A stretch of DNA of 32,066 nt from Candidatus Poribacteria bacterium (lineage in GTDB: Bacteria > Poribacteria > WGA-4E > WGA-3G): NCBI GenBank assembly GCA_965214095.1, contig CBDCAZ010000001.1:1-32066 (forward strand), given 5' to 3'. A program made the translations under genes and the position numbers. This document shows, in pieces, positions 1 through 28,319 of this stretch. The notes beneath the pieces were generated by a model. The model saw only the letters and a program-made list of their open reading frames with translations. It was not told the origin of the DNA and did no database searches. The number at the start of each line of letters is the position of its first letter. The first letter of the stretch is position 1.

Positions 1-120
1 ACCGAAAGCTGCATGTGAGAGATTTGCGATTGCCAAAAATGCGCAATTTTCGGTTGCCATTGACAGCGGGCTAGCGGCAACAATAAACGCCCCGAGGCCA
101 ACCCCGGGGCGTCGCTGAAC

Positions 121-159
121 AGAAATAGAAAAAGCCCCGGAACCCGAAGGCTCCGGGGC
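121..159 (-). terminator. Rho-independent terminator downstream of ssb
   Basis: Minus strand reads GCCCCGGAGCC-TTCG-GGTTCCGGGGC (11-bp stem with one G-U pair, cUUCGg loop) followed by TTTTTCTATTTCT, 14 nt after the ssb stop. Confidence 0.9.
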
Positions 160-173
160 GGGCGGACAATCGC

Positions 174-581
174 TCAGGCGGCGAGGTCCATGTCGTATGC
201 TTCCGCGGGCGGCGCCGGCGGCCGGTCCTGCTCCGGCCTGGGGTCGAGGAAGTTGATGGAACCGCGCGGGCCGACCACGATCTCGGTCGTGTAGCGGTCA
301 TTGCCGGCACGGTCCTGCCATTTGCGTGTGCGCAGCTTGCCGGTGATGTGGACCTGGCGGCCCTTCGCGGCGTGCTTGCGCAGCATGGCGACCAGGCCGT
401 CCTGGAAGACGACAATCCGGTGCCACTCCGTGGACTTCTTGTATTCGCCGCTCTGGCGGTCCTTGTAGACCTCGCTGGTGGCGATGGAGAAATTGGCGAC
501 GTCACCGCCGCTCTGCATGGTGCGGAACTCGGGGTCCCCGCCCAGATTGCCGATCAGGTCGACGCGATTGAGGCCGTTCAT
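174..581 (-). CDS. ssb: Single-stranded DNA-binding protein (mobile-element type)
   Basis: MNGLNRVDLIGNLGGDPE...FSIATSE...TEWHRIVVF...GKLRTRKWQD...RYTTEIVV is a canonical SSB OB-fold. Start moved to the ATG at 581, which has a GCAGGGAG RBS upstream. Short tail ends YDMDLAA rather than DDIPF. Confidence 0.96.
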   Translation of the reverse strand: MNGLNRVDLIGNLGGDPEFRTMQSGGDVANFSIATSEVYKDRQSGEYKKSTEWHRIVVFQDGLVAMLRKHAAKGRQVHITGKLRTRKWQDRAGNDRYTTEIVVGPRGSINFLDPRPEQDRPPAPPAEAYDMDLAA

Positions 582-625
582 GGTACTTGCTCCCTGCAAG
601 AGGTTGGTTGCGAGTTGCTCGAACT

Positions 626-669
626 CACCCCGAACAACCCCTTCCCAGCCTTCGCGGCGTGGATGCCGC
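626..669 (-). promoter_or_regulatory. Conserved upstream motif, copy A (before ssb)
   Basis: Plus strand CACCCCGAACAACCCCTTCCCAGCCTTC followed by a GCGGC-N6-GCCGC hairpin; matches the copies at 1076 and 2461. Confidence 0.7.
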
Positions 670-712
670 AAAGGCCGGAGAAGGGGAAGACAGACGGGGA
701 TGCAGGGAGGAC

Positions 713-1015
713 CTATCGCTGCCGCAACATATGACCCCAGACGGCATAGACGCCCCAGTACTGGACGCCGGAGTCCGGCTTCTTCTCGCAGCGGCAGATG
801 AGGATCTCGTTGCGCGCCGGGCGCAGGTCCCGCACCGTGGCCCGCGACAGGGTCAGCGGATGGCCCTTTCGGCCCGGCAGGCGGCGGATGTCGCCGTCGA
901 TGGTGGTGCGGTAGCGCTCGACCACATAGGTCTTGTCCTCGAGGCCGCGCCCGAAGAGGTGGGTGAGGAAGGTATTCGCATCGGGGCGAAGGAAGGAAGC
1001 CGTCATGCCGGTCAT
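713..1015 (-). CDS. Hypothetical protein (100 aa)
   Basis: Part of ORF 713..1198. The ATG at 1015 has a GGAGAT RBS and the same 5' leader as the gene starting at 2396. No family recognised. Confidence 0.7.
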   Translation of the reverse strand: MTGMTASFLRPDANTFLTHLFGRGLEDKTYVVERYRTTIDGDIRRLPGRKGHPLTLSRATVRDLRPARNEILICRCEKKPDSGVQYWGVYAVWGHMLRQR

Positions 1016-1120
1016 GGGGGATATCTCCGCTTGGGGAAGGACGCGGGCGCCGGTCGGACGGCAGACCCGTATCGATACCCCGACAAACCCCTTCCCGACC
1101 TTCAGCAGCGTTGCGGCTGC
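1013..1120 (-). repeat. Conserved upstream leader/motif, copy B
   Basis: CATGGGGGATATCTCC...GCGGG.GCCGGTCGGACGG...ACCCCGACAAACCCCTTCCCGACCTTC aligns with 2394..2487; GCAGC-N6-GCTGC hairpin at 1105-1120. Confidence 0.8.
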
Positions 1121-1151
1121 CGGGGACCGGGAAGGGGGGCGACGGGCCGCG

Positions 1152-2396
1152 CTACCGGCCTGCGGCCATGGGCGCGGCGTCGGTGATGATCTCGACATCG
1201 TCGATCGTGAGCTTGGCGTAGGCCAGCGCGCCCGCGACCTCCATGGGCGTCTCCCAGGTGCCGTGGTCGGTGCCGGTGGCGATCTCGATCACGGTGTAGC
1301 GGGTGGGCAGGTCCGGCATGCCGCGATACTCGTAGCCGCGCTGGCGGTCGAGGCAGGGGCGGCACTCCCGCATGAGGGGTTCCGGGGGCCGCTGGCCGCA
1401 GCGGGGACAGAGGCCGGCCGACTGGCGCTCGCATGTTACGCGGTGGTAACGGCGTCGGGCGCTTGCGAGGCGCGCCTCACGGCACGGGGCGCAGGATCCG
1501 GACTCACCGACCGGGGCGCGCTTTCCGCAATAGACACACATGCCCCGGGCGCGGGCGTCGGCGACCCTGCGGTGCCACCTCGCGCGCTCGCCGGCGCGGT
1601 GGCTGTCCCGGCAGGGCTCGCACGCGGTGAACCCGGCTTCCGGGGGCTCTTTTCCACACCGGATGCAAAGGTCTTGCGTGACGCGGGCGAGGACCCTGCG
1701 GTTGTACCGGTCCAGCCAGACGGCAAGGCAGGCCTCGCAGGCGGTTCGACCGCGAACGGCCGATGCCTGTCCGCAGACCAGGCACAAACCGACGGCGCGG
1801 CGGGCTTCCCGGCGGCGTCTGGCGGCCTCCCTGTCCCGTTTGGCGGTGAGCGGCTGGCAGTCGGCACAGCGGCGGCGTCCCGGGGCGGGGGGCGCCTTGC
1901 CGCATTCGATACAGAGCGACCGGTCGGCCTGCCGGCGCTGGCGCTCGGTGCGGTCGCGATGGGCCTGGCGCCGGGCCTCGAGGCAGTCCTCGCAACTGGT
2001 CTTGCCGTCTGCGGGCCTGTTCTCCCCGCAGCGCAGGCACAGGCCGGCCTTGTGCCGTTCATCACGCAGGCGCTGCTTGCGGGCACGGTTTGCCGCGCGT
2101 TCGTTCTCCCGGCAGGCGTCGCAGCGGCGGGGGCCGGGTTTCGGGATGGCGGTTTGGCAGTCGCGGCAAAGGCCGAGATTGTACAGAAGGAGGCGGCGCT
2201 TGCGTTCCGACTTGCGGGAACTGGCGCGGCGGCGCTCTATGCAGCCGGCGCAGTATTTCGCGCGCTCCGCGGGAACCTTGCCACAATGGCAAAGGCCCTG
2301 CGCGGGAGGCGCGGCGTCGGTGGAAGTGCCGGCGCGGCAGCAATGACAGCCCGCTTCGGCAGGCGGATGCGGATGACAGGGGGCGGAAGCCGGCAT
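1152..2396 (-). CDS. Tandem Cys4 zinc-finger repeat protein (8 repeats, Arg-rich linkers)
   Basis: Eight ~42-aa units of the form (G)LCxxC-x~11-CxxC plus an Arg-rich helix, then a ~55-aa non-repetitive C-terminal domain. GGAGAT RBS upstream. Confidence 0.85.
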   Translation of the reverse strand: MPASAPCHPHPPAEAGCHCCRAGTSTDAAPPAQGLCHCGKVPAERAKYCAGCIERRRASSRKSERKRRLLLYNLGLCRDCQTAIPKPGPRRCDACRENERAANRARKQRLRDERHKAGLCLRCGENRPADGKTSCEDCLEARRQAHRDRTERQRRQADRSLCIECGKAPPAPGRRRCADCQPLTAKRDREAARRRREARRAVGLCLVCGQASAVRGRTACEACLAVWLDRYNRRVLARVTQDLCIRCGKEPPEAGFTACEPCRDSHRAGERARWHRRVADARARGMCVYCGKRAPVGESGSCAPCREARLASARRRYHRVTCERQSAGLCPRCGQRPPEPLMRECRPCLDRQRGYEYRGMPDLPTRYTVIEIATGTDHGTWETPMEVAGALAYAKLTIDDVEIITDAAPMAAGR

Positions 2397-2507
2397 GGGG
2401 GATATCTCCTGCTGGACGAACGGGCGCGGGAGCCGGTCGGACGGGCGTCCCCGCGGAAATCACCCCGACAACCCCTTCCAAACCTTCGGACGGGCCGCGG
2501 CGGCGGC
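2394..2507 (-). repeat. Conserved upstream leader/motif, copy C
   Basis: Aligns with 1013..1103; core CACCCCGACAACCCCTTCCAAACCTTC at 2461-2487; GCCGC/GCGGC stem at 2494-2507. Confidence 0.8.
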
Positions 2508-2714
2508 ATCCGGCCAGTCGGGCGCGCAGGCGAGCGCCGCGACAACCCGGATCGGGGAAAATGGAGAGGCGGAAACCGGGCCGCCGGTTTTTCGGCTGTG
2601 CCCGGACGCCTTCCATGGTGTTACCGGGGTGGGACTTCAGCAGCCGGGCGCCGTTTTCGACCGCCGCCGGCAGGATGGCGGCCGGCGTCACGCCCTGGTG
2701 GTGGCGCCGGGCCA

Positions 2715-2846
2715 AGCCTGGCGATCACCGCGGCCGAGGCCGGGAGGCGCGTCTATTACGCCACGCTCGCGGGGCTGATCGACTCCCTCACCGAGGCGAA
2801 GACCGCCGGCAACCTGTCCCACCGCCTGCGCGTGCTCACCCACCCC
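2715..2846 (+). pseudogene. istB: IS21-family IstB ATPase internal fragment
   Basis: SLAITAAEAGRRVYYATLAGLIDSLTEAKTAGNLSHRLRVLTHP resembles the IstB segment between Walker A and Walker B; both Walker motifs are missing. Confidence 0.8.
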
Positions 2847-2880
2847 GGCATCGAGCCTGGGGGGACGACCCCACGCCCCA

Positions 2881-2932
2881 GGTGGGAACTTTTGGATCAC
2901 ATGAAATGAGAACTTTTCGGTCCCAATTGACA
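2881..2932. mobile_element. IS21-family terminal repeat (right end)
   Basis: Two copies of TG(G/A)GAACTTTT 24 bp apart (2883, 2907), ending in ...TTGACA. Multiple subterminal repeats and a terminal CA are typical of IS21 ends, and the istB fragment is adjacent. Confidence 0.7.
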
Positions 2933-2949
2933 CCGTCGCCGACAGGACG

Positions 2950-3040
2950 GCGGCCGGGGGTGCCGCGCCTTGTGTCACCGCTTAAATTGCAGGGGGTGCG
3001 CTTTGATTTCGCGGATTGGAGACCTTAACGGTGCTCCCGG
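2950..3040. repeat. ~90-bp direct repeat, copy 1 (oriT candidate)
   Basis: Aligns with 5648..5737; exact 33-bp shared core TTGCAGGGGGTGCGCTTTGATTTCGCGGATTGG (2987-3019). Confidence 0.9.
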
Positions 3041-3044
3041 ATAG

Positions 3045-3253
3045 GCGGACGCGGCGTTTCGCGCCTACTTCGGGCTGGAGCCACCGGCGCAGCAGCAGGA
3101 CCTTGCGGCGCTCACGCCCGGGGGTTTCGCCGTGGTGCGCCGCGAGGCCGAAATCCTGGACCTGCTCGACGAGCCGGAGGAGCTTGCCCGGATGCTCCAC
3201 GAGGAATGCGAGGCAAGCCGGGGCACCCGCAGGTCGTGGGCTTGCGGGCATGA
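3045..3253 (+). pseudogene. C-terminal fragment of an AAA+ ATPase
   Basis: AAFRAYFGLEPP...LTPGGFAVVRREAEIL...LHEECEA, then after a frameshift KPGHPQVVGLRA-stop; resembles the LTPGDFAVV...ECEAK...IGF tail of proteobacterial AAA ATPases. In-frame TAG at 3042 and no N-terminus. Confidence 0.55.
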
Positions 3254-3326
3254 GGTTTGCCGGGCCGGGCGCGCCGGCTATGGTGCTTCCGGCAAAGGCC
3301 GTCGGCAGAGAGGGGGAAGAGTCCGG

Positions 3327-3431
3327 ATGCGCTACGAACGCGCACAGCAGCTTGTCGCTCTGGCAATCCGTCTCCAGGGCTCGCCTTCCGGCCTTACGCC
3401 TGACGATATCCGGTCGGAGCTTTCCGTCTCC
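3327..3431 (+). pseudogene. N-terminal winged-HTH fragment of a WYL-domain (DriD/PafBC-like) regulator
   Basis: MRYERAQQLVALAIRLQGSPSGLTPDDIRSELSVS after a purine-rich RBS; similarity stops where the RTxxR recognition helix should follow. Confidence 0.65.
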
Positions 3432-3704
3432 CCGATCCTTCGGCGCCATTCAAGGTCGGGCGGCACGATGACGTTTCTCTCCTGTTTGCGGCGAGTCGAC
3501 GGCGCGGTGCCTAGCCGAACGGTTCGCGCGCCAGGCATCAGGCCTCTCATCCGAACGATATCAGATCAACAGTATTGTCATGGTCAGGGCGCCAAACGAG
3601 AATGTGGCCAGCCTATCTCGTAGTGTGAACTTGCCACCCACCGTCCCGACAGACCAACGCGGCTGTCGGAACACCGGACGACCGACCAAGGAGACGATGG
3701 CACG

Positions 3705-5402
3705 ATGGAATACATCCCGATACGGGTCAGCGACATTGTGAAACACGTGAACCATGACTGGTATCTTCCGGCAATTCAGCGTGAACTCGAATGGAATACG
3801 GTCAGAATAGAACGTCTCTTCGATTCCATCTTGTCCGATTTCCCCATAGGTTCATTCCTATTTTGGAACTTGGAGGAGAAGAACAAGAGCGAATGGCCTA
3901 TTTATGAATTCATTCGCGACTACGATGAAGACAAGCCTCACAACGTCTTGGCTAACATCCATGGGATTCGGAAGGATCTTACGCTGGTTCTCGATGGGCA
4001 ACAAAGAATTACATCTCTGTATATCGGCCTGATGGGATCTTATCGCTTTTTCTATTATCGTTGGCGTATGACGCGATTATACCTCAATTTGCTCAAGCCA
4101 CCAGTCCCGAATGAAGAAAATCCGGAGGAACTTGCCCACGAGTTCTCGTTTCGCGAGAATGGCCACGCGACCAACGACCTAGAAAAGTTGTGGTATCCAG
4201 TTGGTCGAATACTCGACTTTAACGACGCTGAAGATGCCAAGGCAGATATGAAGCAAACACTGTCCAGATTTCCTGAAGACGCACAGGAAAACGCCAATAA
4301 GCTTATCGGACGACTGCACAATCGTATCCACACCACGTTGATCGGAAACTATTATCTCGAAAAATCCCAAGACTATGACAAGGTTCTACAGATCTTCGTT
4401 CGCTCCAATTCTGCCGGGCAGCCATTGGCGTATTCCGACTTGCTGCTTGCAACGGCAACGGCGAAGTGGGACACCCTTGACGCTCGTAGCGAGATTCACA
4501 ATTTTACCGATTTGCTCAACGAAACCGGTACCGGCTACAAGTTCGGCAAAGATTTTGTGCTAAAGGCCTGCCTCTATCTCTGCGAATCTCTGCCAATACA
4601 GTACAAGGTCAAGAATTTTTCGAAGTCCAACCTCCTGACCATCGAATCCAACTGGGAGTCCATCAAGGATACGCTTGCTGTGACGGTGCGCTTGATTTCC
4701 CGTTTCGGCTTCCAAGCGAAAAACGTCGTGGCACCACTGGCCCTGCTCCCGATTGCCTTTTACCTGCAGAAGCGGGGCGATCCGAACTTCGACAAGTCAT
4801 CGAGCGTCGAAGACGCGGAAGCTCAGATCGCCATTCGAAAATGGTTTGTGTTTGCGACCCTCAAGAATGCATTTGGCGGCTCCTCAGATACGACGTTGAC
4901 ACGTCTTCGCCAGATACTGACGAAAGCTGGTTCGGCATTCCCTGCGGAAGAAATGTACAGATCTCTTCAGATCGAGCCGTCGTTGAGCGACGCGGAAGTG
5001 GATCGGATGTTGGAATATCAATACCAGGGCCGTTACACTAATTTGATTCTGTCGTTGTTGTATCCCGATAGAGACTGGAAAGATGCGGTGTTTCATGAGG
5101 ACCATATATTCCCGCAATCTGAATTCAAGGTAACGTTGTTGAGGGGACGATGTTATGATGATACCAAAATCCAGTCGTATATGTCGCGGTTCAACACGCT
5201 GCCGAACCTTCAGCTTCTGACCGATTCCGAGAATATGTCGAAGGGTGCTACACCTTTCGACAAATGGCTAAAGACCAGGGACGCGAAGTACCGATGTCGC
5301 CATCTAGTCCCGGGTTTGACAGATTATTCTTTCGACAACTTCGAAGAGTTTTTTAACGCCAGACGGCAATTGATAGTGGCGGCACTCAAGGCACTTTCCT
5401 GA
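3705..5402 (+). CDS. DUF262 + C-terminal HNH (DUF1524-like) protein, GmrSD-family putative modification-dependent restriction nuclease
   Basis: LPAIQRE, LFDS..PIGS..W, VLDGQQRITSL and IFVRSNSAG (DUF262/ParB-like NTPase); HEDHIFP...NTLPNLQLL...EN (HNH). Visibly lower GC than the flanks. Confidence 0.88.
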   Translation: MEYIPIRVSDIVKHVNHDWYLPAIQRELEWNTVRIERLFDSILSDFPIGSFLFWNLEEKNKSEWPIYEFIRDYDEDKPHNVLANIHGIRKDLTLVLDGQQRITSLYIGLMGSYRFFYYRWRMTRLYLNLLKPPVPNEENPEELAHEFSFRENGHATNDLEKLWYPVGRILDFNDAEDAKADMKQTLSRFPEDAQENANKLIGRLHNRIHTTLIGNYYLEKSQDYDKVLQIFVRSNSAGQPLAYSDLLLATATAKWDTLDARSEIHNFTDLLNETGTGYKFGKDFVLKACLYLCESLPIQYKVKNFSKSNLLTIESNWESIKDTLAVTVRLISRFGFQAKNVVAPLALLPIAFYLQKRGDPNFDKSSSVEDAEAQIAIRKWFVFATLKNAFGGSSDTTLTRLRQILTKAGSAFPAEEMYRSLQIEPSLSDAEVDRMLEYQYQGRYTNLILSLLYPDRDWKDAVFHEDHIFPQSEFKVTLLRGRCYDDTKIQSYMSRFNTLPNLQLLTDSENMSKGATPFDKWLKTRDAKYRCRHLVPGLTDYSFDNFEEFFNARRQLIVAALKALS

Positions 5403-5647
5403 CACCTCGGTGGCGGCGCGTTCGTCGAGCTAGGTGGATTCGTTAGGCCGCCGCCCCACTCTGGGCTAGCGGTCTTCTCTCGGCAGTGGGAAGCGGGCGG
5501 CAATCATCCGGAAGAAATAGCACGATGCGCGCCCGGTCGGCCCCCTGTAGTAGCCCAAGGTCAATGTGTTGCCGCGTCGATTAGCGCCGAGCCGCACGGG
5601 CAGGACTCGTTGCGGCCCACCTCGTGTCCAAAAGCCGGGAGACCTTC

Positions 5648-5737
5648 GCGGCCGTGGGTGCCGTGCCTCGTGTCGCCGCTTCGTTTGCAGGGGGTGCGCT
5701 TTGATTTCGCGGATTGGGGATCCTATGGTGCTCCCGG
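5648..5737. repeat. ~90-bp direct repeat, copy 2 (oriT candidate, upstream of MobC-like gene)
   Basis: Exact 33-bp core at 5685-5717; lies ~85 bp before the RHH relaxosome-type gene. Confidence 0.9.
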
Positions 5738-5822
5738 GGATTGGCCGGGGAGGCCGTGGCTGACAACGGGACTATCCCCGGGGGGCGCGACGTGACCATG
5801 GATACGCCATGGATGATGCCCC

Positions 5823-6197
5823 ATGGCGGCACCGGGAAACGCGCGTTCTGTCACCGTGTTCCCCGGGAGGAGGAACGGTTTGGCCGGGGATGATGGCAGG
5901 AAGAGGCCGCGCTCGGTGATGGCGACCGACAGCGAGTGGCGCCTCGTGCGCGACCGGGCGGCAAAGGCGGGGCTGTCGGCTTCGGAGTTCCTGCTGTCGC
6001 GCGGGCTTGCGCCTGCGGAGCCGGCGGTCGGGGGTGGCGGGCTGCCGCCCGCGGCGCAGCGGCGCCTTGCGGTCGATCTGCGCCTTCTGGCGCTGGCGGA
6101 GCGCCTGCGGCTGGCGCAGGAGGGCCGGGAGGGCGTCTGGCGCCGTCTGGTGGAGGAAGCGGAAGCCTCGGTGGCCGATGACGAGAGGGAGGGCTGA
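5823..6197 (+). CDS. Ribbon-helix-helix relaxosome accessory protein (MobC/NikA-like)
   Basis: RPRSVMATDSEWRLVRDRAAKAGLSASEFLLSRGL is an RHH mobilisation-protein pattern, and the gene lies near a relaxase. Start codon uncertain. Confidence 0.72.
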   Translation: MAAPGNARSVTVFPGRRNGLAGDDGRKRPRSVMATDSEWRLVRDRAAKAGLSASEFLLSRGLAPAEPAVGGGGLPPAAQRRLAVDLRLLALAERLRLAQEGREGVWRRLVEEAEASVADDEREG

Positions 6198-6203
6198 GCG
6201 GCC
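6124..6203. repeat. 80-bp direct repeat, copy 1 (3' end of MobC-like gene)
   Basis: 78 of 80 positions identical to 7919..7998; includes the TGA stop. Confidence 0.95.
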
Positions 6204-6207
6204 CGGC

Positions 6208-6372
6208 CACAAGGTCGTCCTGCACGAGATGATCGTGGCGGAGACGCAGTGCTGCGAGCAGGTGGCGCGACTGGATCAGGCAATCGAAGGCGCTCTCCTC
6301 GACTGGCCACTCGCGCCGGTGATGGAGCCCCTTCAAGCGCTGCGCGGAGTCAGACTCATCGCTGCGGTTACC
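6208..6372 (+). pseudogene. IS110-family transposase internal fragment
   Basis: HKVVLHEMIVAE...VARLDQAIEGALLDWPLAPVMEPLQALRGVRLIAAVT resembles the coiled-coil/HhH linker region of IS110 transposases. Confidence 0.7.
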
Positions 6373-6389
6373 GGTGACGCCGTGAGACC

Positions 6390-6587
6390 AGCATTGAGGA
6401 TGCGTTCGATCTCCGTCCGCCCTTCGCGTCCCATGCGCTGCCGCTCGGCGAGACCTTGCCGCTCGTCAGCAAAGTGCTCGGGCACGGCGATATCGAGACG
6501 ATGGCACGCTACGCCAATCTGGCGCTGGGCTCGATCCATGCAATGGTCGGGCGCGTTACCGAGGGCATTGCGGTAGATATACTGTAG
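6390..6587 (+). pseudogene. Tyrosine recombinase/integrase C-terminal fragment, degenerate
   Basis: Not in the ORF track. FDLRPPFASHAL..GETLPLVSKVLGHGDIETMARYANL...DIL-stop is a decayed HDLRH(S/T)FAS...LGH...T.RY box II. Confidence 0.85.
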
Positions 6588-6687
6588 GCGACACCACATC
6601 GCTCGGAGAGCCAAGTATTGCCAGGCTCCACAATCCCTCACAAACGGATAGTGCAGAAACAACCACTCACAACGACCGGAGACCTTA

Positions 6688-7914
6688 TTGCGCCTGAACC
6701 TTTCGTTTGAACCCGATCTCTTCGTGGCCCAACTGGGTCACGAAATAGCCGCAGGTGGCCTGACAGTCGTCGATGCAGTTGAGAGGTTTCTCTCAGATTG
6801 GCTGGAGAATGCCATCACCGGATGCCTCGGCGATAGAATCGTCAAGGCTCCCAACTCAATTGTGAATCCTACATACTACGTCAATCGATTCCAAAACCTT
6901 GCCGCACTCAGTCATGCCGGATATTCCACTTGGTATCCGGAAGTGCGTTTTTCCACGGGCAAGGGTGATGATGTAGACATTACTCAGTTGAGTGCGTCTG
7001 GCATTGAGCTCCGTAGCATTAGGTATGGCGGCGACGTTGAACGCCATTACGCCCACAAAATGAAGGAACTCAAGACGCAAGTAAACCATTCAATTCGTCT
7101 AAACGAAGTAAGAATATCTCCGGATCTCTTCATTCAAGTTATACAGGTATTGGCAAATCACCGTAAACTTTCGCAACCCCATATAGCCAACTTAACTGTG
7201 GGCATCGAACGATTTGTCGACGACAGAATTGAAGGATTCAGGACGGTCGCCTTTGACCATGTCGTTACCGGCGAGCGGCACTTCTGTTCATGCCACTCTG
7301 ACGCGCATGAGGCAATGCTCATGGATGCCAGAGAACGGCTTCCAAGTTTTGTCTCGGGTTCCTGGCCACATCGCGTCGTTTCTTTGCTTCAAGGCGCTCG
7401 ATATACGGACGACATTTGCCATTTCTGCGTTGCAGAACAGCACGGGAAGAACGCTCACGTAGAATGGTACGGCAGTCAGATTCGAAAGCATTATCAACCA
7501 TATGTTGATCTGCTTGTTCGCGGTAAGGTCATGGATCGCCGAACAGCGCGCGCAGAAACGATGCGTCGTCTTTCGATCAGCCGGTGGGTACGCGAGGACG
7601 AGCTATACGCAGTAATTCACAAGCTCTTTCCTGACCGTAAGATTCGCCGTGAGGCTTCCCCAACTTGGCTGGGTCAGCAGCGCCTGGACATCTATCTTCC
7701 CGAACTTGCCCTTGCGATCGAACACCAGGGAGAACAACACTTCTTTCCCATTGAAGCGTTTGGCGGACAAAGCGCATTGGAGAAGACGCGGGAGCGCGAC
7801 CGGCGCAAACGGGCACTGTGCAATGAGAACGGCGTTACGGTCATTGATGTGCGTTTCGATGACCCGATAACGACATCTAGTCTTAGAAGCCGCCTTAAGC
7901 GCTGGCTCTGCTGA
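6688..7914 (+). CDS. Unknown N-terminal region + Cys/His Zn-binding cluster + C-terminal Vsr/DUF559-like PD-(D/E)XK endonuclease
   Basis: TTG start with GGAG RBS; HFCSCH...CHFC; WLGQQRLDIYLPELALAIEHQGEQHF...RDRRKRALC. Lower GC than the flanks. Confidence 0.78.
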   Translation: MRLNLSFEPDLFVAQLGHEIAAGGLTVVDAVERFLSDWLENAITGCLGDRIVKAPNSIVNPTYYVNRFQNLAALSHAGYSTWYPEVRFSTGKGDDVDITQLSASGIELRSIRYGGDVERHYAHKMKELKTQVNHSIRLNEVRISPDLFIQVIQVLANHRKLSQPHIANLTVGIERFVDDRIEGFRTVAFDHVVTGERHFCSCHSDAHEAMLMDARERLPSFVSGSWPHRVVSLLQGARYTDDICHFCVAEQHGKNAHVEWYGSQIRKHYQPYVDLLVRGKVMDRRTARAETMRRLSISRWVREDELYAVIHKLFPDRKIRREASPTWLGQQRLDIYLPELALAIEHQGEQHFFPIEAFGGQSALEKTRERDRRKRALCNENGVTVIDVRFDDPITTSSLRSRLKRWLC

Positions 7915-7918
7915 AGTA

Positions 7919-7998
7919 GCCGTGAGGGCGTCTGGCGCCGTCTGGTGGAGGAAGCGGAAGCCTCGGTGGCCGATGACGAGAGGGAAGGCTGAGCGGCC
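7919..7998. repeat. 80-bp direct repeat, copy 2 (orphan copy of the MobC-like 3' end)
   Basis: 78 of 80 identical to 6124..6203; begins 4 bp after the stop of ORF 6688..7914. Confidence 0.95.
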
Positions 7999-8058
7999 GC
8001 GGATTCGGTATGGCGCCAGTGCTCCCGGATCGCCTGTGCGCGGCTGCTGCTTGCGCCG

Positions 8059-11000
8059 TCAGTATGAGAGGCCGTATCCCCTGGTGAGTTCCTGGCGCCG
8101 CGCGTAGACCTCGCCCATGTGCCGCCAGCATTCCCCGGAGAGGTTCTCGAAGCTCCGGGCGAGGTCGGCGGGCAGGGCCTGTGCCAGCCCGGACAGGGAG
8201 AGCCTGTCGTCGGGATCGATGGCCTCGCGGATATGGTGGCGGAAAGCGGCAAGGGTCTCTTCGGGCCAGGCGCGGTTCCTGCGGGCGAGTTCGACCAGCG
8301 CGTCACGGTCGCGGTCGTCTTCGGGCCTTGTGACGGCGCACATCAGCATGTCGAGGCGGCCGGGGTCGTGGCGCTGGTCGCCGGCGGCGAACGCGCCGGC
8401 GTCCGGCAGTTCGATCCGGCGGGGCCCCGCCTCGGGATCGCGCGCGGCGCGGCGGATCGCCTCGATCTCGGCAACGAGGTCGGCCATGTCGATCCAGCGG
8501 CGGTCGACATGGTCGCTCTGGGTGGGGTTGCCGGAGGCGCGCCAGTTCCGGAAGGTCTTGACGAACTGCTCGGCCCGGACGTCCCACCTGCGGTAATCCG
8601 GATCGACGTCGTTGAGGGCCCGGGGCGGGGGTTCGGGCGCCGGGGGGATGTCGTCTTCGGCCCGGAACAGCCCGAGGGCGCGGCCGATGAGCCCCGGACG
8701 GGCGGCCTCCTCCTCCGGGGCGGGCGGTTCCGGGGCAAGGGCGCGGTCGAGAATGGCGGGATATGTCTCCAGATGGGCCCGGGCCCGCCTGATTGCGTTC
8801 CGGATCGTGTCGCGGACACGGATTTCGCTGTCGATCACGGCCTGGAACTGCTCAAGGTAGCGGCGGTCCCTGTCGGAGAGCCCGGGGGTTGCGAGCAGCC
8901 GCGCGGCCTCGGCGCGCAGCGGCTCGATGCCGGGCTGGTAGATGATGGCGCTCTCGCCGGCGGCGGCGTCGGCCTCGTCAACGGCATCGCGGATGCGCCG
9001 GCAGCCGCGGGCAGCCTCCGCCTCCCGCTGCGCCCCGGCCCTGCCGGCGGCCGCCTTCGCCTCCTCCCGCAGCGTCTGGCCCGCGCCCTCCATGAGCGCC
9101 TCCGCCGCTTCCGCCGCCGCACGCCATGCCGCCGCATCCTGCGGGACGGCCATCCGGATCTGCGCTTCCAGATCGTCCAGCGCCCGCAGCGTGCCTCTTG
9201 TCGTCACCGCCCGTTCCCGGTGCCGCTCCGCCCGGTCGCGCCATTCGGCCGCCGCCCGGGGAGACCCGTCTTCCAGGGCATCCGCGACCGTCCCGGCGAT
9301 GGCGGACGCGCCGCCATGCGCCGACATCCGCTGCTGCCGCAGTTGCCGCCATGCCTGCACATCCGCCACAGTCAGTGGCGCCATCTCCCGCTCCGCTCGC
9401 GCCGCCTCGGAGATCCGGCGCCCGACCAGCCTGTAGATCCAGCGTTGCACCTCCACATCGAGCGCCCGTTGCCGCGCCCGGGCGTCGCGCGCCACCGCCG
9501 CCTCGCCCGCCACCAGCGCCCTGTCGGCCAGAACGCCGAAGGCCATCGCCGCCTCCCGGGCGGCCGCGCCATGGCGCTCTATAGAGGCCGTGTCGATATC
9601 CCTGTCGGAGAGGGCCCCGGCAGGCGCCAGACGCTCCGAGGCCGCGTCCGCCGCCGCCAGCGCCACGTTCAGAATACGGTAGGCCCGAAGCCGCGCCTGC
9701 ATCCCGGATCCGTTCGTCCTCGCCGCCCCGATACCGTCCCCGTCGGGCGCATGGCCGGCGGCAGCCGCCGCTTCCGTGAACGCCTCGGCGACGGCGGCCG
9801 CCGCGTCCCGCACCCGTTCGACCGCTGCCATCCGCGCCCGCAGCGCCTGCCTGTCCTCCAGCCCGCCCGCCGGCAGGGCGGCGAAGGCGCGTTCGGCCTC
9901 CTCCGCACGGGCCCGCGCCGACGAAAGCGCCGCCTCCGCCTCCACCAGCCGGTGCCGGGCCTCCCCCTGGTACCGCCGATCCGCCCGCAGGCCGTCCAGG
10001 AACTGAGCCGCTATCTCCGCGCGGATGGTGGATTTCGCCGGGACCGCCGTGTCCACCTCGCCGATCGCCTCCAGCGCCGTCAGCCGCGCGCCCGTGTTCG
10101 CCTCCAGCGTCTCCACAAGCTGCTCGCGATTGTCGGTCAGCACCACAGCCTGCTCGCGCGCCCGGCCCAGCTGCACATAGAGCGTCTGCTGGTTCACCAG
10201 CGGCCCGGCGCCCGTGTCCAGCACCGCGATCACCCGGTCATGCGTCTGCCCCTGCGCCGCATGCACCGTGGAGGCATAGGCGTAGGCCAGGTGGCGCAGC
10301 TGCGGGTCGTTCCGCGCGAAGCTCAACTCCCGCCCGTCGGGGAGCCCCATCCACAGCACCCCCTTGCCGATCTCCAGCACGTCGGCCCGGTCGCCATTGG
10401 CAAGGCCGCGCTCCCGGTCGTTGCGGGTCCAGCGCAGCCGCTCGCCTTCCCTGATCCGCAGCGTCTTCGCCTCGAACAGGTCGAGCCGGTAGCGCAGCTC
10501 GCTGCCCGGCTTCAGGTGGCGCGGCCGGCCGTCATCATGGGCAAGCCTGACACGGTCCTCCTCCACCGCCATCACCGTGCAGGCATCGTCCCTGGCGATG
10601 CGGTAATGCTTCATGTCGCGGTTGAAGAGCGCGATATCGCCCTCGCGCCAGTTGCGGGGATCGCCGGTCTCGGCGCGTGTGAGGTTGAGCGGCACCAGGG
10701 TCTCGATCTCCATGGCGCGCCCGCGCAAGGCTCCCTCGGCCTCAAGACCCTCGCGCACCGCCTCCTCGACCCCGGCCCTGAGCGCGCGCGTCGGCACCAG
10801 CAGCGCCGTTGCCGCCCGCGCCTCCGCCGAGAGCCTGAGCCAGAGACCGGCCGCCACACCCGCGATCTCCTCGGCCGGGACTTCCTGCAGATTGCCCCCC
10901 AGATGCGCGAGCGCCGCGCCCGGCTCGCCCTCGATCATCTCCGCGACCGCCGCCCTCAGGTCCGGATCGCGCTGCCGGCGCAACTCGTCCATCTCCACAA

Positions 11001-12783
11001 CGCCCATGCCCGCCTGCTGCATCTGCCGGAAGGGCTGGCCCGCCTCCACGCCCCGCAACTGCCGCTTGTCGCCCACAAGCACGAGGCGCGCCACCTCCAG
11101 ACGCTCCGCAATCCTGAGCAGCGACCGCGCCTGCGCCGTGCCCGCCAGCGACATCTCGTCGACTACCACCACCGCGCCGCCATAGCGTTCTTTCAGGCGA
11201 GCGAGCGTCTCGGCATCCGCGACCCCGTCCGCCACCTCCCGGCAGCGTGTGAGGAACCATTGCAGCGTCCGGCAGGCGAGGCCCGTCTCGCGCGAGAGCG
11301 TCCGCGCCGCAGACGCCGACGGCGCCAGGCCCAGCACAGGCCGCCCGCCCAGGCACGACACGGCCCGGCGCAGCATGACCGTCTTGCCGCTGCCCGCATG
11401 GCCCTGTACGCCCAGCACCCGGTCGCGGCTCTCCAGGATCGAGCGCACCGCCTCGCGCTGGCCTTCGCTCAACCCCGCCAGCGCCTCTTCCGGAACGGCA
11501 TGCGCCGCGAGTGGGCGCACCGCGCCGATGCCGGCCTTCATGCGGGCCAGAACCTCGCGCTCGGCCTTCACCGCCCGCGCCGTCGTCCACGCCGCGCCCA
11601 CCCCGCGCCGGATCGCCGGCAGCAGATGCCTGTCACGCTGCAGTTCGGCAAAGGCGCCCTCGATCTCCTCCAGACGGTAAAGCCCCGGCCTGTGCGCCAG
11701 AGCCAGCGCCAGCGCCTCCCTCTCCGGGAACACGCTCGCCCGCTCCTCCAGCTGCTCCAGAACCCGCCAGGCGATCTCCAGCGCCGTCGGCGGCTCCGGG
11801 TGGCGCGCGCCGATCTTCCTGAGCGTCCGCTTGGCGAGACCGCGCTCCTCCGCGAAATCCCGCCACAGCGCCTCCAGCTCCGCACGCCGCGGCTCGTTCT
11901 TGCGCGCCCTTGTGGCCAGCGTCGCCATCTGCGCCGTGCGCGCATCGTAGCGCCAGCCCTTCTCCCGGATGAAGTCGAGGATCTGCCGCCGCCGGCTCGA
12001 GAACGCCTCCAGAGCCGCCCGCGGCCAGCCCGATATCTCGAACCCCGGCACACGCCCGATCATCGACGGCCTGAGCGCGAACCCCGCCTTCCTCAGCCCG
12101 TGCGCCAGTTCGTTGCGGTAGAAGGCCCCGACCAGCTTCTCCGACCGGCGCAGCAGGCCGATCTCGGCACTCCGCCACTGTCCGCCATCGCGGGTCATGT
12201 TGGCGATCACGCAATGGGTGTGAAGCTGCGGGTCGTTGTTGCGGCTGGTGATGTGCCGGAAGGTTGCCGCCACCAGCATGGGTGCGTTCACCTGCACCGA
12301 GCGCCGCTCCTCCGGGCTCCAGCGCCGCGTCCGCAAGAGCCGCGTCTCGATGAACGCCAGCGTCGCGCGCACCGCCGCGTCATGCGCGCGCATCGCCCGC
12401 GCGGAGCCCGGACCGCCGAGCAGCGCCTCCAGCGATACCGACTTCGGCGCCGACAGCGTGATGTCCACACCCGGGCGGTGCTCGTGTTCACCGTCGCGCA
12501 GCCGCCCCAGGCGAATGTCCGTGCCCGGCACATGGCCCTGAAGCACGCGGCGGAACTCTCCCGGCTCCACATGGCCGCTCAGCCCCAGCGCCGCCGCCCC
12601 GCTGCCCCGCCACCGGCTCGCCTTGCGGTGCTCGTCATCGCGGCGGGCGTAATAGTCCTCGCGCTCATTAGCCTGCCCCGGGCTCGATCCGGGGGTCGCC
12701 GGCGCGCCCAGCCCGTGGCCCTCGCGGCGGAAATAATGCACCGTCGAGGAGGCCGAGGTGAGGCTGACCACCGTCGCTACCAT
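8059..12783 (-). CDS. trwC: MOBF conjugative relaxase-helicase (TrwC/TraI family) with long C-terminal extension
   Basis: N-terminal YF...DYY, DITLSAPKSVS, HITSRNNDPQLHTH (HUH), FSSRR; RecD-like helicase motifs GHAGSGKT, VVVDEMS, LVGDKRQL, YASTVHAAQGQT, LYVQLGRAR. Confidence 0.95.
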   Translation of the reverse strand: MVATVVSLTSASSTVHYFRREGHGLGAPATPGSSPGQANEREDYYARRDDEHRKASRWRGSGAAALGLSGHVEPGEFRRVLQGHVPGTDIRLGRLRDGEHEHRPGVDITLSAPKSVSLEALLGGPGSARAMRAHDAAVRATLAFIETRLLRTRRWSPEERRSVQVNAPMLVAATFRHITSRNNDPQLHTHCVIANMTRDGGQWRSAEIGLLRRSEKLVGAFYRNELAHGLRKAGFALRPSMIGRVPGFEISGWPRAALEAFSSRRRQILDFIREKGWRYDARTAQMATLATRARKNEPRRAELEALWRDFAEERGLAKRTLRKIGARHPEPPTALEIAWRVLEQLEERASVFPEREALALALAHRPGLYRLEEIEGAFAELQRDRHLLPAIRRGVGAAWTTARAVKAEREVLARMKAGIGAVRPLAAHAVPEEALAGLSEGQREAVRSILESRDRVLGVQGHAGSGKTVMLRRAVSCLGGRPVLGLAPSASAARTLSRETGLACRTLQWFLTRCREVADGVADAETLARLKERYGGAVVVVDEMSLAGTAQARSLLRIAERLEVARLVLVGDKRQLRGVEAGQPFRQMQQAGMGVVEMDELRRQRDPDLRAAVAEMIEGEPGAALAHLGGNLQEVPAEEIAGVAAGLWLRLSAEARAATALLVPTRALRAGVEEAVREGLEAEGALRGRAMEIETLVPLNLTRAETGDPRNWREGDIALFNRDMKHYRIARDDACTVMAVEEDRVRLAHDDGRPRHLKPGSELRYRLDLFEAKTLRIREGERLRWTRNDRERGLANGDRADVLEIGKGVLWMGLPDGRELSFARNDPQLRHLAYAYASTVHAAQGQTHDRVIAVLDTGAGPLVNQQTLYVQLGRAREQAVVLTDNREQLVETLEANTGARLTALEAIGEVDTAVPAKSTIRAEIAAQFLDGLRADRRYQGEARHRLVEAEAALSSARARAEEAERAFAALPAGGLEDRQALRARMAAVERVRDAAAAVAEAFTEAAAAAGHAPDGDGIGAARTNGSGMQARLRAYRILNVALAAADAASERLAPAGALSDRDIDTASIERHGAAAREAAMAFGVLADRALVAGEAAVARDARARQRALDVEVQRWIYRLVGRRISEAARAEREMAPLTVADVQAWRQLRQQRMSAHGGASAIAGTVADALEDGSPRAAAEWRDRAERHRERAVTTRGTLRALDDLEAQIRMAVPQDAAAWRAAAEAAEALMEGAGQTLREEAKAAAGRAGAQREAEAARGCRRIRDAVDEADAAAGESAIIYQPGIEPLRAEAARLLATPGLSDRDRRYLEQFQAVIDSEIRVRDTIRNAIRRARAHLETYPAILDRALAPEPPAPEEEAARPGLIGRALGLFRAEDDIPPAPEPPPRALNDVDPDYRRWDVRAEQFVKTFRNWRASGNPTQSDHVDRRWIDMADLVAEIEAIRRAARDPEAGPRRIELPDAGAFAAGDQRHDPGRLDMLMCAVTRPEDDRDRDALVELARRNRAWPEETLAAFRHHIREAIDPDDRLSLSGLAQALPADLARSFENLSGECWRHMGEVYARRQELTRGYGLSY

Positions 12784-13076
12784 GAGCAGAGCCTAGCCCA
12801 TTGCGCAGGGCGGCGCATGCACGGACCTGCTCCCGATACCGGTCGGTATTGTCGGGACTTCGCGTTCGGGGGCCACACGAACGTCAGGGCATCGGGAGGA
12901 TTCCGTTGGCGGCGGAATCATGGCAGGATGGCGCACATTCACGGATCGCGTTCCGGGCCAGACCGGTATCGGAGGGACAGGCCATGACACCAATGCTTGC
13001 GAAGGTCGGGACGGCAGCATCGGCCCTGTTCATGGGCCGGCTGGCGGTTTCGGGGTTGACAGGCGGAGACACCGAC

Positions 13077-16000
13077 ATGGCTACAATTAAGCCGAGCCGA
13101 GCCGAGCCGAGCCGAGCCGAGCCGCTCTTCCTGCGTCTTCATGGTGGCGCCGCCTAGGGCGCTCCGCCTCCCGGCCTGAGCTTTCTTCCGCTAGCGGGCG
13201 TTCCGACAGCCGCCGGCCCGCTTCCTCCTCCGACAGCTTCGCTCCCTCTCCCACCCGCGCCGCCGCGGGCGTTGGTCCTACCGTTCGCCGTCCCCGGCGC
13301 GGCCTGCTGCCCGCCCTGTTTGTCCTGCCGCTGCTCCTCGGGCTGGCAACCGAAGCCGCAGCGCAGAGCCAGAGCGTGCCGACGCTCAAGGTCGAGATAC
13401 CGACCGTCACCGAAGGCGAGACCGGCACCATCAAGCTCACCCTGAGCCAGGAGTCGAGCCAGTCGATAGATACTCAGGTTAGCGCCTTCTCTATAGTTTG
13501 CGGCAGTGGCGTTACCTGCCCGCAAGGCACGACCGCAGCGGGCGCCAGCGACTATTCCTTAACCAGCGTGACGATAACCTTCGCTCCTAGCGAGACGACC
13601 AAGACCGTCTCCTTCACCACGACCGACGACAGCACGTCCGAGTCGACCGAGGTGTTCCAGCTTGCGGTTACCGGTCTCGCTGCCTCCGAAGCCACCATCG
13701 ACCCCAGCACGCCGGCAGACGGCCAAGGTTTTGGACAACCATACTGGTTAGTCCGCATCCAGGACAACGACAATCCGGGGAACCCGAACGTCACGATTAC
13801 CCCCGGCACGTCGCCGGTGACGGAGGGGACGGCTGCGACCTTCACGGTGACGGCGACGCCGGCGCCCACTGCGGCGACGACGGTCTCGGTGGCGGTGACG
13901 GAGGAGACGAGCGGCAGCCAGGATTTCGTGGCTTCGAGCAACGAGACCACGCACACGGTGACCATTCCGGCGTCGGGAAGCCCGAACGCGGGCACGGCCA
14001 CGCTCACCATCCCGACGGTGGGCGACACCAACCAGGAGCCGCATGGCGCGGTGACGGCGGCGGTGAACACCGGCACCGGCTATACGGTGGGCAATCCGTC
14101 ATCGGCGACCGTGACGGTGCTGGACGACGACGGCACGTCGGCGCCTCCGGAGGTGTCAGTGCGGTTGATGACCGGCGAGGGCGAGAACCGCAACTCCGAC
14201 GGCGAGGTGGAGAAGCCCGAGTCCGACGGCACGGTGTCGTTCCCTCTATCGCTGGACGCGCAACCGTCGGCGGCGCTGACAGTGTGCGTCCGAGTGACCG
14301 AGTCGGGCGATGTCGACCGGGTCGCATTGGCCGATGAAGGTATCAAGACGGTGAGTTTCAACTCCGGCGTGCAGACGGGGTCAATCGACGTGGCGTGGAC
14401 CGACACAGATGCGGACGACCTGGACAGCGTCATCACCGTTACGGCAGTCCCGTCCAACACCGTGGGCTGCAGCAGCACGGACGTGTACACGGTGTCGAGC
14501 ACCACCGGCTCAGACAAGGTGAAGGTCTCGGATGACGAAGTGACCGCATTGTCGTTGGCTTCTTCGGACACGGAGATGGGTGAAGGCGACGCTTCGAACA
14601 CGGCGGTGATAACGGTGTCTCTGGGTCGTGCGCTGATCAGCGGTGAGTCGGTGGTGGCGCCGATCACGCTCGCTACCGACAACGGCGCACGACTGCCCGG
14701 CCACGCGACACCGGACTTTGCGGTGGCCGCAATGGGCACCGGCGTGGCGCTGAGCAACGCGACGTCCGCGACGCCCCGACTGACGTTCACCGGCTCCGAC
14801 TCAAGCACCGTGCAGGAAGCGACGGTGACGCTGACTCCAGTGGCGAACCGGGACGACGGTGACACGGACAATGAGACGATCACCGCAACGCTTTCCCTGC
14901 TGACCGGCACGGGTTCGGGCACTGTGGTGACCGGCGGCGGCGTGGCAGTCGTACAGGCATCTTCGGTGGCGACCCTGACGCTGGAGGACGACGAGGCCGC
15001 GCCGCCGGCGTGCCCTGCCCAGAACAACAGCCTCAGCGTTGGCAGCATTCGCATTCTCGAAAACGGCGAAACGACCTATTGCGTGCGGCTTCCCACCGCG
15101 CCTTCCGGTGGCAACACCACCGTCACCATCGGCAAGGCGGGCAGATATCAGGGGGCCGCGAACGCAAGCACAACAACACTCACCTTCACGGCATCGAACT
15201 ACATGAACCCGCAGCCGGTAACGGTGACCGGCGTGGACCAGCCGAACCTCCATCTCAACCGCACACTGTCATTGACCCACGCGGCCAACGGCGGCGGCTA
15301 CTCGAACCAGGGACTGGGCTGGGTTTCGGTGACGGTGGACGACGCGCCCGAGCTTGAGGTGTTTGATCTGGCGGTAATGAACGCCAATGACTACGCTGCC
15401 AAACAGCGCCCGAACACCGTCAAGGCGACGCGGGGGTTCAGGTATTTCCAGAATGACATGGTGCCAATTCTGCCGCTGCGTTACCTGCTGCGCCTGTCGA
15501 ACCGCCCGGCGACCGGCGAAACGGTGACGGTGACGGCAACATCGAGCGACTTCGCCAAGTTCGGCCTGTCTCGGACCCCGGGCGGCACGCCGCAGCCGTC
15601 GCTGACGGTGACCTTCGAGGACCGCGATGCCGACCGGGTCTGTTTCAATGGGGGTCACGGCTCTCCTGATGGAGCTAACACGCCGAACCCGGACATGTCC
15701 TGGGCGTGCAATCGCCGGATCTGGGTCATCAGCACGCAGAATGACAAAGCGACCTACCGGAAGGGCTGTGCCGACATCACCCACACGGCCTCGGGCGGCG
15801 GCCTGCGCGGCACGGCTATCGGGACGATCCGCGCCCACGCCGTTGCTGCCGGCAACCACCGTGCCCCCTCCAACGCCCCGGGCCGCGGATGCGCCCTCAT
15901 CACCAGCGAACTGCGCGGCCGCTCCGCACCCGCCCTTGCCGCCCCGGCGCCCACCGAGGCAGTCTCCAACCTGCAGGTGACGGCGGTGGACGACACCAGC

Positions 16001-19000: not shown

Positions 19001-19168
19001 ATGGGGCTGGGGCTCGCCACCGGCGCACGCGACTACAGCATCGGCTGGAGACTGACGCCCTCGAAGAATGCGCCTGATGTCTCTTTCGGCATCCGGGCAA
19101 CCCGCAGGGAAAGCGACGCGGCCGCACCGGAGCATACCCTCGGGCTCGAAATCAACACGCGGTGGTGA
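13077..19168 (+). CDS. Large secreted/outer-membrane adhesin-like protein (Calx-beta/Ig-like repeats, FN3-like domain, C-terminal autotransporter-like beta-barrel); frameshifted at the (AGCCG)7 tract
   Basis: ORF 13376..19168 has VTEG...TVTVLDDD Calx-beta-type repeats, an FN3-like NLQVTAV..SVTWDAVEHATSYDVSW segment, and an amphipathic beta C-terminus ending in Trp. The frame stays open back to 13091 and encodes a signal peptide (RRPRRGLLPALFVLPLLLGLATEAAA/QS), but the ATGs with an RBS (13077, 12984) are in another frame. Confidence 0.85.
13090..13124 (+). repeat. Pentanucleotide microsatellite (AGCCG)7, putative phase-variation tract
   Basis: Seven perfect AGCCG units starting 13 nt after the first base of ATG 13077. 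Confidence 0.97.
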
Positions 19169-19311
19169 GGCACGGTGGTTGCCGATCGCGCGGCGGGGCA
19201 GCGATATCTGCCACTGCCGGGGCTGCCCGAACAGGCGCCTCCGGCCCGGTCGTTCCAGGACGCACTCGTTCGTTCGTCATGGCCTCTGGCTCCGATGCCC
19301 GTCAGGGGCGA

Positions 19312-20804: not shown

Positions 20805-20927
20805 TGTGGCCCTACCCGACTGCGGATTACCAAGGACGGTGACTGAACCTTACTCGCACTGGCCAGAGCCTGACGACTGCTTGGGCAACCGGAGCGGCCC
20901 ATTGGGCTCCCCCGCATTGTTGAAGCT

Positions 20928-21923: not shown

Positions 21924-22421
21924 AACCGCAGCCTCCCCTCAACGCTCTTCCGTCGAATACAAACGTTGCAGTACGACTACAACATCCGCTCCACCCTGGT
22001 CGATGCGCAGGCTGTCGCAAGGCAGCATGCGAAGCGTCGGTAGCCCGGGAAGTCCTGCGCAGCGTAGTCCGGCTTCTGTGCTTCCCCGATTTCCTGCTGT
22101 GCCGGGAGGCGAAGGCCAGCCCTGCTTGCTGGCGGGCCGGAACCCGCATTCAATCTCGGCGATACTCCGAGCGGCTCTTCGGGAAGTTGCCATGCCTCCC
22201 CCTTATCGCACCCATGCAGGACCGGTATGCTGCGCTTGAGGGACCAGTCTGGACTGCCGGGGGCGGGATCTTGCAAGGGGCGTGGCATGAAAAGCGTCGG
22301 GGAACCATGAGCAAGGCCTTTTTCGACGGGCCTGTCGAAAATTCTTCGAAACCCTGCCTCTCGCGCATATCCCTCGTCTGGATGATCGCGCCGTCATGGC
22401 CGGCGACAGAATGGAGCGGGC

Positions 22422-28303: not shown

Positions 28304-28319
28304 AAGGCAAGCGTGAACC

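Follow-up and report, generated by a model that had tools for sequence, protein, structure and literature searches.

Cargo hotspots that hold defense genes are well known in integrated mobile elements, for example in the integrative and conjugative elements (ICEs) of the SXT/R391 group. A different precedent comes from e14 and phage 21, which integrate into the 3′ end of icd and supply a replacement end. Recombination by a relaxase is a further described system: in the R388 report, TrwC recombines directly repeated origins of transfer (oriTs) and inserts incoming DNA at an oriT already present; a target of 17 bp is enough, and the reaction is enhanced by the ribbon-helix-helix (RHH) protein TrwA (PMC3264647). 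The same report states that TraI of F does not catalyze oriT recombination (PMC3264647), so this activity is not general to MOBF relaxases. Here these systems are compared with a locus of a Candidatus Poribacteria bacterium (GenBank assembly GCA_965214095.1, contig CBDCAZ010000001.1, positions 1 to 32,066; the whole stretch of 32,066 nucleotides is called the window), where a type IV restriction gene lies between two copies of a direct repeat, R1, close to genes for an RHH protein and a MOBF relaxase. An earlier note on the window had likened R1 to an oriT and had proposed, citing the TrwC reaction that the R388 report does confirm, that the local relaxase could excise, mobilize or have integrated the restriction cassette. 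A related genome carries the same backbone without the cassette, and homology-driven recombination explains the cassette better than the relaxase does.

Two Bracketed Segments and a Cassette-Free Relative

Relatives were collected by scanning genome contigs with an alignment of the RHH protein, which yielded 20 loci (L001 to L020), all from metagenome-assembled genomes; by their titles 18 are from Alphaproteobacteria, with L010 assigned to Gemmatimonadetes and L011 to Defluviicoccus. The features of the window that carry the argument are as follows.

2950–3040 (+): R1a, the upstream repeat copy (in-window blastn, alignment)
2987–3019 (R1a) and 5685–5717 (R1b) (+): exact 33-nt core; the identical 33 nt also occur in L001
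3041–5647 (+): segment missing from L001 (L001 comparison, GC profile)
3705–5402 (+): intact BrxU/GmrSD-family type IV restriction enzyme, 565 aa (Pfam, PADLOC and PDB matches)
5648–5737 (+): R1b, the copy at the native position (in-window blastn, L001 comparison)
5880–6197 (+): NikA-like RHH protein, 105 aa (Pfam, homologue alignment)
6124–6203 (+): R2a, made up of the 3′-terminal 74 nt of the RHH gene with its stop codon, and 6 further nt
6204–7918 (+): second segment missing from L001, ~1.7 kb (L001 comparison)
6217–6372: IS110-family transposase fragment
6405–6587: tyrosine-recombinase C-terminal fragment
6688–7914: low-GC open reading frame (ORF) of 408 aa, with no family
7919–7998 (+): R2b, the second copy of R2, which runs on into native sequence ahead of the relaxase stop codon
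8059–12783 (−): MOBF (TrwC-type) relaxase fused to a superfamily 1 (SF1) helicase, 1574 aa (Pfam, NCBIfam, PDB)

The descriptive part of the earlier note, which had reported ~90-bp direct repeats with an exact 33-bp core around ~2.6 kb, an intact lower-GC DUF262-HNH gene between them and a second copy just upstream of the RHH gene, agrees with what was found, and the local relaxase of which it spoke is encoded nearby and is of the TrwC type. R1a and R1b are 86.8% identical over 91 nt (E = 1e-25 by blastn within the window), lie in the same orientation 2698 nt apart from start to start, and mismatch at 12–13 among 92–93 aligned positions, a divergence that makes an assembly artefact unlikely. 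The end of R1b is separated by 142 nt from the TTG start of the RHH gene at 5880. When 11–13 differences were placed at random in 91–92 nt, a perfect run of at least 33 nt arose in 2.6–5.8% of 200,000 simulations, so the core by itself is only marginally unusual. A shorter direct repeat of 26 nt (88% identical) is present at 2660–2685 and 2932–2957; the second copy shares 8 nt with the start of R1a, and the first copy coincides with the point where homology to L003 stops.

The closest view of the unoccupied state is given by L001. Window positions 85–3040 correspond to L001 6973–9857 (90.5%), 5648–6206 to 9768–10327 (96.1%) and 7919–12894 to 10245–15202 (95.7%); L001 therefore has one R1 and one R2 at this place and neither cargo segment, with ~70 nt between the stop codons of the RHH and relaxase genes. 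An empty allele thus exists for both brackets, and it is the single-repeat, cassette-free arrangement that the earlier note had envisaged. As for its proposal of a cassette that is excisable or was integrated, the cassette is indeed an insertion/deletion polymorphism relative to L001, and no specific support was found for the relaxase as its agent. R1b is 95.6% identical to the R1 of L001 (4 differences) and differs from R1a at 12 positions. R1a keeps the core intact, and the family-conserved motifs to the right of the core are changed in it, including the GGGGAT-type motif and the TATGGT hexamer.

Comparison with L001 also bears on where within R1 an exchange might have occurred. Sites 2957 and 2966 follow R1a, and sites 2971, 2977 and 2984–2986, together with those to the right of the core, follow R1b. 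The switch from R1a-like to R1b-like sequence falls between 2966 and 2971, outside the core, with just two sites backing any switch at all. Since all later informative sites follow R1b, any exchange point would lie upstream of the exact core.

The segment between the R1 copies consists of ~520 nt of high-GC DNA (GC 0.68) in which no gene was recognised, the low-GC defense gene and a high-GC tail of ~245 nt; GC is 0.485 in the gene and about 0.70 in its flanks. The 565-aa protein matches Pfam GmrSD_N (E = 2.8e-29), PADLOC HEC-05 over its full length (E = 1.3e-182) and PDB 7p9k over residues 13–562 (E = 1.9e-89), and its GmrSD_C score of 16.6 bits is under the 23-bit cut-off. With GmrSD_N and the full-length HEC-05 and 7p9k matches, it shows the N-terminal DUF262 and C-terminal DUF1524 His-Me finger in one chain that characterize GmrSD/BrxU enzymes. 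What we take to be the DGQQR and DHIFP motifs are seen in the translation. HEC-05 is identified with BrxU in a preprint (10.1101/2024.01.29.577857); for all its likeness to HEC-05 and 7p9k, the window gene differs from BrxU in standing alone, with no adjoining BREX genes. It has a promoter-like site of its own at 3575–3603. The stretch 3052–3470 gave no Pfam match at E up to 10 and no longer homologue, and a guess that an AAA ATPase and a WYL regulator had left remnants there was dropped. Pfam scans and homologue searches found no recombinase or recombinase remnant in the R1-bracketed segment.

R2 brackets the second segment in a comparable way. Its copies are 98% identical over 80 nt, with 2 mismatches and a perfect block of 61 nt. 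The IS110 fragment begins mid-gene, ~13 nt beyond the R2a junction, and is followed by the tyrosine-recombinase fragment, ~200 nt from R2a, which covers positions 131–168 of 172 of the Pfam model (E = 0.017) and is, by tblastn, 39% identical to part of an L012 ORF that has a Phage_integrase domain (1.6e-23). The 408-aa ORF has no Pfam, NCBIfam or PADLOC family, and the Atlas returned only unnamed clusters for it. Both inserts are a patchwork, each with one low-GC gene amid high-GC DNA of unrecognised content or gene fragments, and neither was found to have transposon ends or an intact recombinase.

The RHH protein matches the Pfam NikA-like model just under its cut-off (E = 2.9e-5); 60 homologues were found, and an alignment of 30 of them sets the TTG start. 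The relaxase matches Pfam TrwC (E = 2.3e-73) and AAA_30 (E = 2.9e-46) and scores 250.7 bits with NCBIfam MobF (cut-off 100); its nearest solved structure is TrwC itself (PDB 1omh, E = 2.9e-45). A TrwC domain with the histidine triad, followed by an SF1 helicase, is the architecture of a MOBF relaxase. A histidine pair of the form HxH (..LHTHC..) and N-terminal tyrosines are visible in the translation, and we take these to be the HUH motif and the catalytic tyrosines. The relaxase gene is on the opposite strand, convergent to the RHH gene and not in an operon with it, and its end lies 1.86 kb downstream of the RHH gene in the window (70 nt in L001).

Conservation of R1 and the Left End of the Element

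The earlier note had expected the repeat to be conserved beside homologous mob genes, and for the RHH gene it is. R1 was found by blastn in 5 of the 20 loci, and a profile found 15 copies in 7 of the 20, which with the two of the window makes 17, all on the RHH strand. By profile there are four units in L001 and two each in L002, L003, L004, L013 and L019, and the multiplied units include the leader motif. An alignment of the 300 nt before the RHH gene was made for 19 loci and the window (L016 had too little upstream sequence and was excluded). In it R1 corresponds to blocks that are conserved across the family before the RHH gene, and after them comes a leader in which a CATGGAT-type motif is repeated; the blocks align in most of the 19 loci, and poorly in L007 and L012. 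Upstream of the relaxase gene, only ~30 nt are conserved among the six sequences compared, and this region was rejected as a candidate oriT.

Further upstream, homology begins abruptly at the same 8 bases, GGTGTGCC, in 11 of the 12 more distant loci that were aligned. Searched for with the 8-base motif and a left-end profile, this left terminus is present once each in the loci that have it, 18 of the 20 (L001–L006, L008–L015 and L017–L020), except for L012, which has two in inverted orientation; L007 and L016 are without it. For example, it spans 9665–9776 in L005 and 5203–5313 in L001. After the 8 bases come an inverted repeat and a conserved block. The sequence to the left of the terminus is unrelated between loci and holds ordinary genes, such as those for a peroxiredoxin (L003), a metallo-beta-lactamase-fold protein (L005), a P450 (L009), a solute-binding protein (L017) and a truncated phage portal protein (L001). 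Because a sharp common terminus abuts unrelated DNA, the RHH gene and R1 can be assigned to the left end of a mobile element that has integrated. In simple members some 100–190 nt separate R1 from the terminus. Neither the left-end profile nor the first 8 bases located a left terminus in the window, and a right end of the element was not found, although no scan aimed at it was made. Three tandem R1-plus-leader units stand right after the left terminus in L001 (5300–5982) and L003 (9170–9845), that is, in both clades. The third R1 unit of L001 precedes an ORF of 63–64-nt tandem repeats (6150–6973), not an RHH gene.

No type IV coupling protein domain was recognised among the long ORFs scanned in the window and eight loci, so the element looks mobilizable and not self-transmissible. 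The family is without a match in the plasmid collection searched with window positions 1–13000 (megablast), the RHH protein (tblastn) and the left end plus RHH gene of L005 (blastn); with the relaxase N-terminus, all matches were below 60% identity, and the 15 listed were at 36–43%. An Rfam search of the whole window at E up to 1 returned nothing in 2900–8100. No tRNA was found, and R1 is therefore not a tRNA-type attachment (att) site.

Eleven loci extend at least 2.5 kb beyond the RHH gene on its right. Seven of them (L001, L005, L007, L008, L009, L017 and L018) have a relaxase gene convergent to the RHH gene, and in the other four (L003, L012, L015 and L016) none was found. The gap between the two genes ranges from 70 nt (L001) to ~4.6 kb (L009), and its contents differ: L005 has a cold-shock-domain protein there, L009 a tyrosine recombinase and L017 a second NikA-like ORF, so that two such ORFs stand ahead of the relaxase in L017. 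Intact tyrosine-recombinase genes occur in this gap in L009 and L012. The relaxase gene of L008 (11205–15519, −) appears to be split into two ORFs, and that of L007 (12557–14359, −) to be truncated. L012 has two inverted copies of the left end, R1 and RHH gene, at 9464–10318 (+) and 16454–15596 (−). These copies enclose ~7 kb with tyrosine-recombinase genes, and no flanking target duplication was seen.

Origin of the Brackets

The brackets may have arisen by homology-driven recombination or duplication of pieces of the RHH module, an explanation to which we would give about an even chance. Both repeats would be pieces of one conserved module, R1 as the control region before the RHH gene and R2 as the 3′ end of its coding sequence, and the module would lie at the left end of chromosomally integrated, probably mobilizable elements with a convergent MOBF relaxase-helicase. 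The DNA on either side of the RHH gene would act as a cargo hotspot; in the window, each of the two cargo segments is flanked by one complete and one partial module copy. Such an arrangement could result from single-crossover (Campbell-type) integration of a fragment of a sister element still bearing a piece of the module; it could also result from tandem duplication of the module, after which cargo would replace the redundant copy. Neither route would require a cassette-specific enzyme, and the perfect blocks (33 nt in R1, 61 nt in R2) may permit loss of a cassette by homologous recombination, giving an L001-type arrangement. R1b would then probably be the working copy, serving as promoter and operator of the RHH gene, and is possibly part of the oriT of the element; R1a is presumably a redundant copy. 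Two brackets of near-equal size (90–91 and 80 nt) stand within 5 kb, and one of them is plain coding sequence of the RHH gene, so brackets form here without any oriT. Because it covers both similar-size brackets, the multiplied R1 and RHH copies, the patchwork inserts and the variable cargo, the homology-driven account is the simplest.

Several points weigh against it. No donor of either cassette turned up, although no scan aimed at donors was made, and no remnant of leader or RHH gene was found beside R1a, the best in-window match there being 38 nt at 76% (E = 0.26); the route of recombination is therefore something that we infer. The similar bracket lengths could point to one dedicated duplicative mechanism. 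That R1b is nearer to the R1 of L001 than R1a is would fit a foreign R1a and a faster decay of a redundant copy equally well, and the polymorphism itself may be an insertion in the window lineage or a deletion in the L001 lineage. The promoter assigned to R1b is a weak one, TTGATT-N17-TATGGT agreeing with the consensus at 8 of 12 positions and not being reported by the promoter scan.

In the relaxase model, R1 would be the oriT of the local MOBF relaxase, which would have joined an R1-bearing circle to the resident R1 through strand transfer specific to oriTs and could excise it again, and the extra R1 copies of relatives would be scars of such events. We regard this as unlikely. The model is mechanistically legitimate, given the recombination and integration at oriTs, the 17-bp target and the enhancement by TrwA that are described in the R388 report (PMC3264647). 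The window shares with R388 a TrwC-type relaxase and an RHH partner gene, and direct repeats of a mob-proximal element flanking a segment are what the TrwC reaction between two oriTs produces, as described there (PMC3264647). R1 also has the adjacency to relaxase or accessory genes that an oriT would show, R1b being next to the RHH gene within the sole non-coding DNA around the two mob genes that was found to be conserved; all 17 R1 copies are direct repeats, and the empty allele exists. The earlier note had further drawn on a resemblance of the core to the F nic region, and this did not hold up. In the F oriT record (L021) the nic strand is the reverse complement of 645–675, and the F 13-mer is matched at 11 of 13 positions by R1b and at 10 of 13 by R1a. 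At up to two mismatches the window has 2 matches where 0.94 would be expected, a number attained in 24 of 100 shuffles; R1b alone of the R1 copies passes at this limit, R1a needing three. The likeness is at chance level and was rejected, so that comparison with F yields no nic-site match of the kind that a MOBF-type oriT would have. A hairpin in R1 was likewise rejected: single-stranded DNA folds of R1a, R1b, the L001 R1 and the matching L005 region had z-scores of −1.09 to +0.88 on both strands, no better than shuffled sequence, and the inverted repeat 5′ of nic on the transferred strand that is characteristic of MOBF oriTs was not seen. In F, moreover, the nic-strand motif is antisense to traM, an orientation by which the mob genes are the last to enter. 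The F-like motif of R1, in contrast, has the same sense as the RHH coding sequence and is thus not antisense to the accessory gene, a comparison that is valid only if the F-like motif marks nic.

Other differences from R388 point the same way. R1 is only a putative oriT, with no IR2-like hairpin and no nic match above chance; the relaxase gene is convergent to the RHH gene, unlike in the trwABC operon; any exchange point, as placed by five informative sites (2971–2986), would be upstream of the core, the place of the F-like motif; and the second bracket, being coding sequence, is left unexplained. The cassette is also without a replicon, the long ORFs scanned in the window and eight loci showed no recognisable type IV coupling protein domain, and TraI of F does not carry out this recombination according to the R388 report (PMC3264647). 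The oriT/relaxase reading is, all told, without positive support. A wider version seems very unlikely to us. In it the oriT would comprise both R1 and the hairpin-bearing left terminus, and the relaxase would also be a recombinase that stitches R1-bearing cargo circles into the element, leaves R1 arrays as scars and may set the left boundary. The boundary to which it appeals is sharp, starts with an identical 8-base sequence in 18 of the 20 loci and lies at unrelated chromosomal sites.

The brackets might instead be the attL and attR of small islands placed by a tyrosine recombinase, each carrying a copy of its target, with recombinase genes that have since decayed or been lost. Here the likeness is to e14 and phage 21 in icd, since R2 duplicates 80 nt of the 3′ end of a gene without disrupting it and has a recombinase fragment nearby, ~200 nt from R2a (Pfam E = 0.017; 39% identity to the L012 stretch); in L009 and L012 the gap between the RHH and relaxase genes holds tyrosine-recombinase genes that are intact. 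Att sites typically have diverged arms on either side of an identical core, which is the pattern of R1. Yet R1 is non-coding and adjoins no recombinase, its segment holds neither recombinase nor remnant, and the informative sites would place any exchange outside its core. Inside the R2 bracket the recombinase gene is reduced to a C-terminal fragment, a 60-codon remnant unlike the gap recombinases of L009 or L012; it follows the mid-gene IS110 fragment beside R2a, with no intact island end between. Decayed islands thus fit R2 better than R1, and as an explanation of the brackets we consider them improbable. Long target-site duplications, made by staggered breaks 80–90 nt apart and fill-in, with end-joining or an unknown duplicative mechanism, would account for the alike bracket lengths (90–91 and 80 nt), for the 98% identity of the R2 copies and for inserts that resemble arbitrary fragments. 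The R1 copies, however, differ at 12–13 of 92–93 positions, and R1b is nearer to L001, so that R1a would have to decay fast; moreover, no bacterial system is known to us that duplicates target DNA over 80–90 nt, although no literature search was made on this point. We judge this explanation highly improbable.

If homology-driven recombination is indeed the origin of the brackets, the locus would be a clear natural case of gain or loss of a defense gene on a mobile-element backbone, with readable junctions. The likeness to hotspots of the SXT/R391 type lies in a conserved backbone with cargo, much of it defense genes, at fixed intergenic positions whose fill varies. The differences are that the cargo here is bracketed by partial duplicates of a backbone module and that the element family is unmatched in the plasmid collection; this family, together with a readable pair of occupied and empty alleles, is what the locus adds. 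The findings point to integrated elements of uncultured Alphaproteobacteria in which the left terminus is defined and the RHH gene faces a convergent MOBF relaxase gene, with two slots where restriction genes and other defense genes gather as cargo. With R1, the left-end hairpin, the relaxase domain and both alleles defined, the relaxase as a natural cassette integrase is now directly testable; if true, relaxase-driven capture would be a natural example of a process known mainly from engineered R388 assays.

Other Genes of the Window

The backbone to the left of R1a and the DNA beyond the relaxase gene hold the following genes.

174–671 (−): single-stranded DNA-binding protein (SSB)
1152–2396 (−): Cys-rich repeat protein, 414 aa
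20928–21923 (−): NucS-like protein, PADLOC PDC-S11
22685–25708: SF1 helicase, MkoA-like
26213–28303: coiled-coil ATPase, PDC-M26A-like
28320–29939: DUF2357 protein
within 19300–32066: open ORF of 713 aa

The 414-aa protein consists of many CxxC...CxxC repeats, has no family match and is kept beside SSB in L001 (85% identity) and L003 (66%). An ORF at 933–2909 (+) was rejected as a high-GC artefact over this opposite-strand gene. In L003 the SSB and Cys-rich genes are found to the right of the RHH gene (10718–15296), in the place of the relaxase, and not to its left as they are here. They are separated in L003 by a group II intron reverse transcriptase (12207–13913), and no relaxase was found within 10 kb. 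Divergent from the relaxase gene, the window encodes a 1930-aa Calx-beta and fn3 repeat protein (13376–19168, +), a relative of which occupies the same place in L001, preceded by IS66. Window positions 19300–32066 are a run of defense-type genes, including the open 713-aa ORF.

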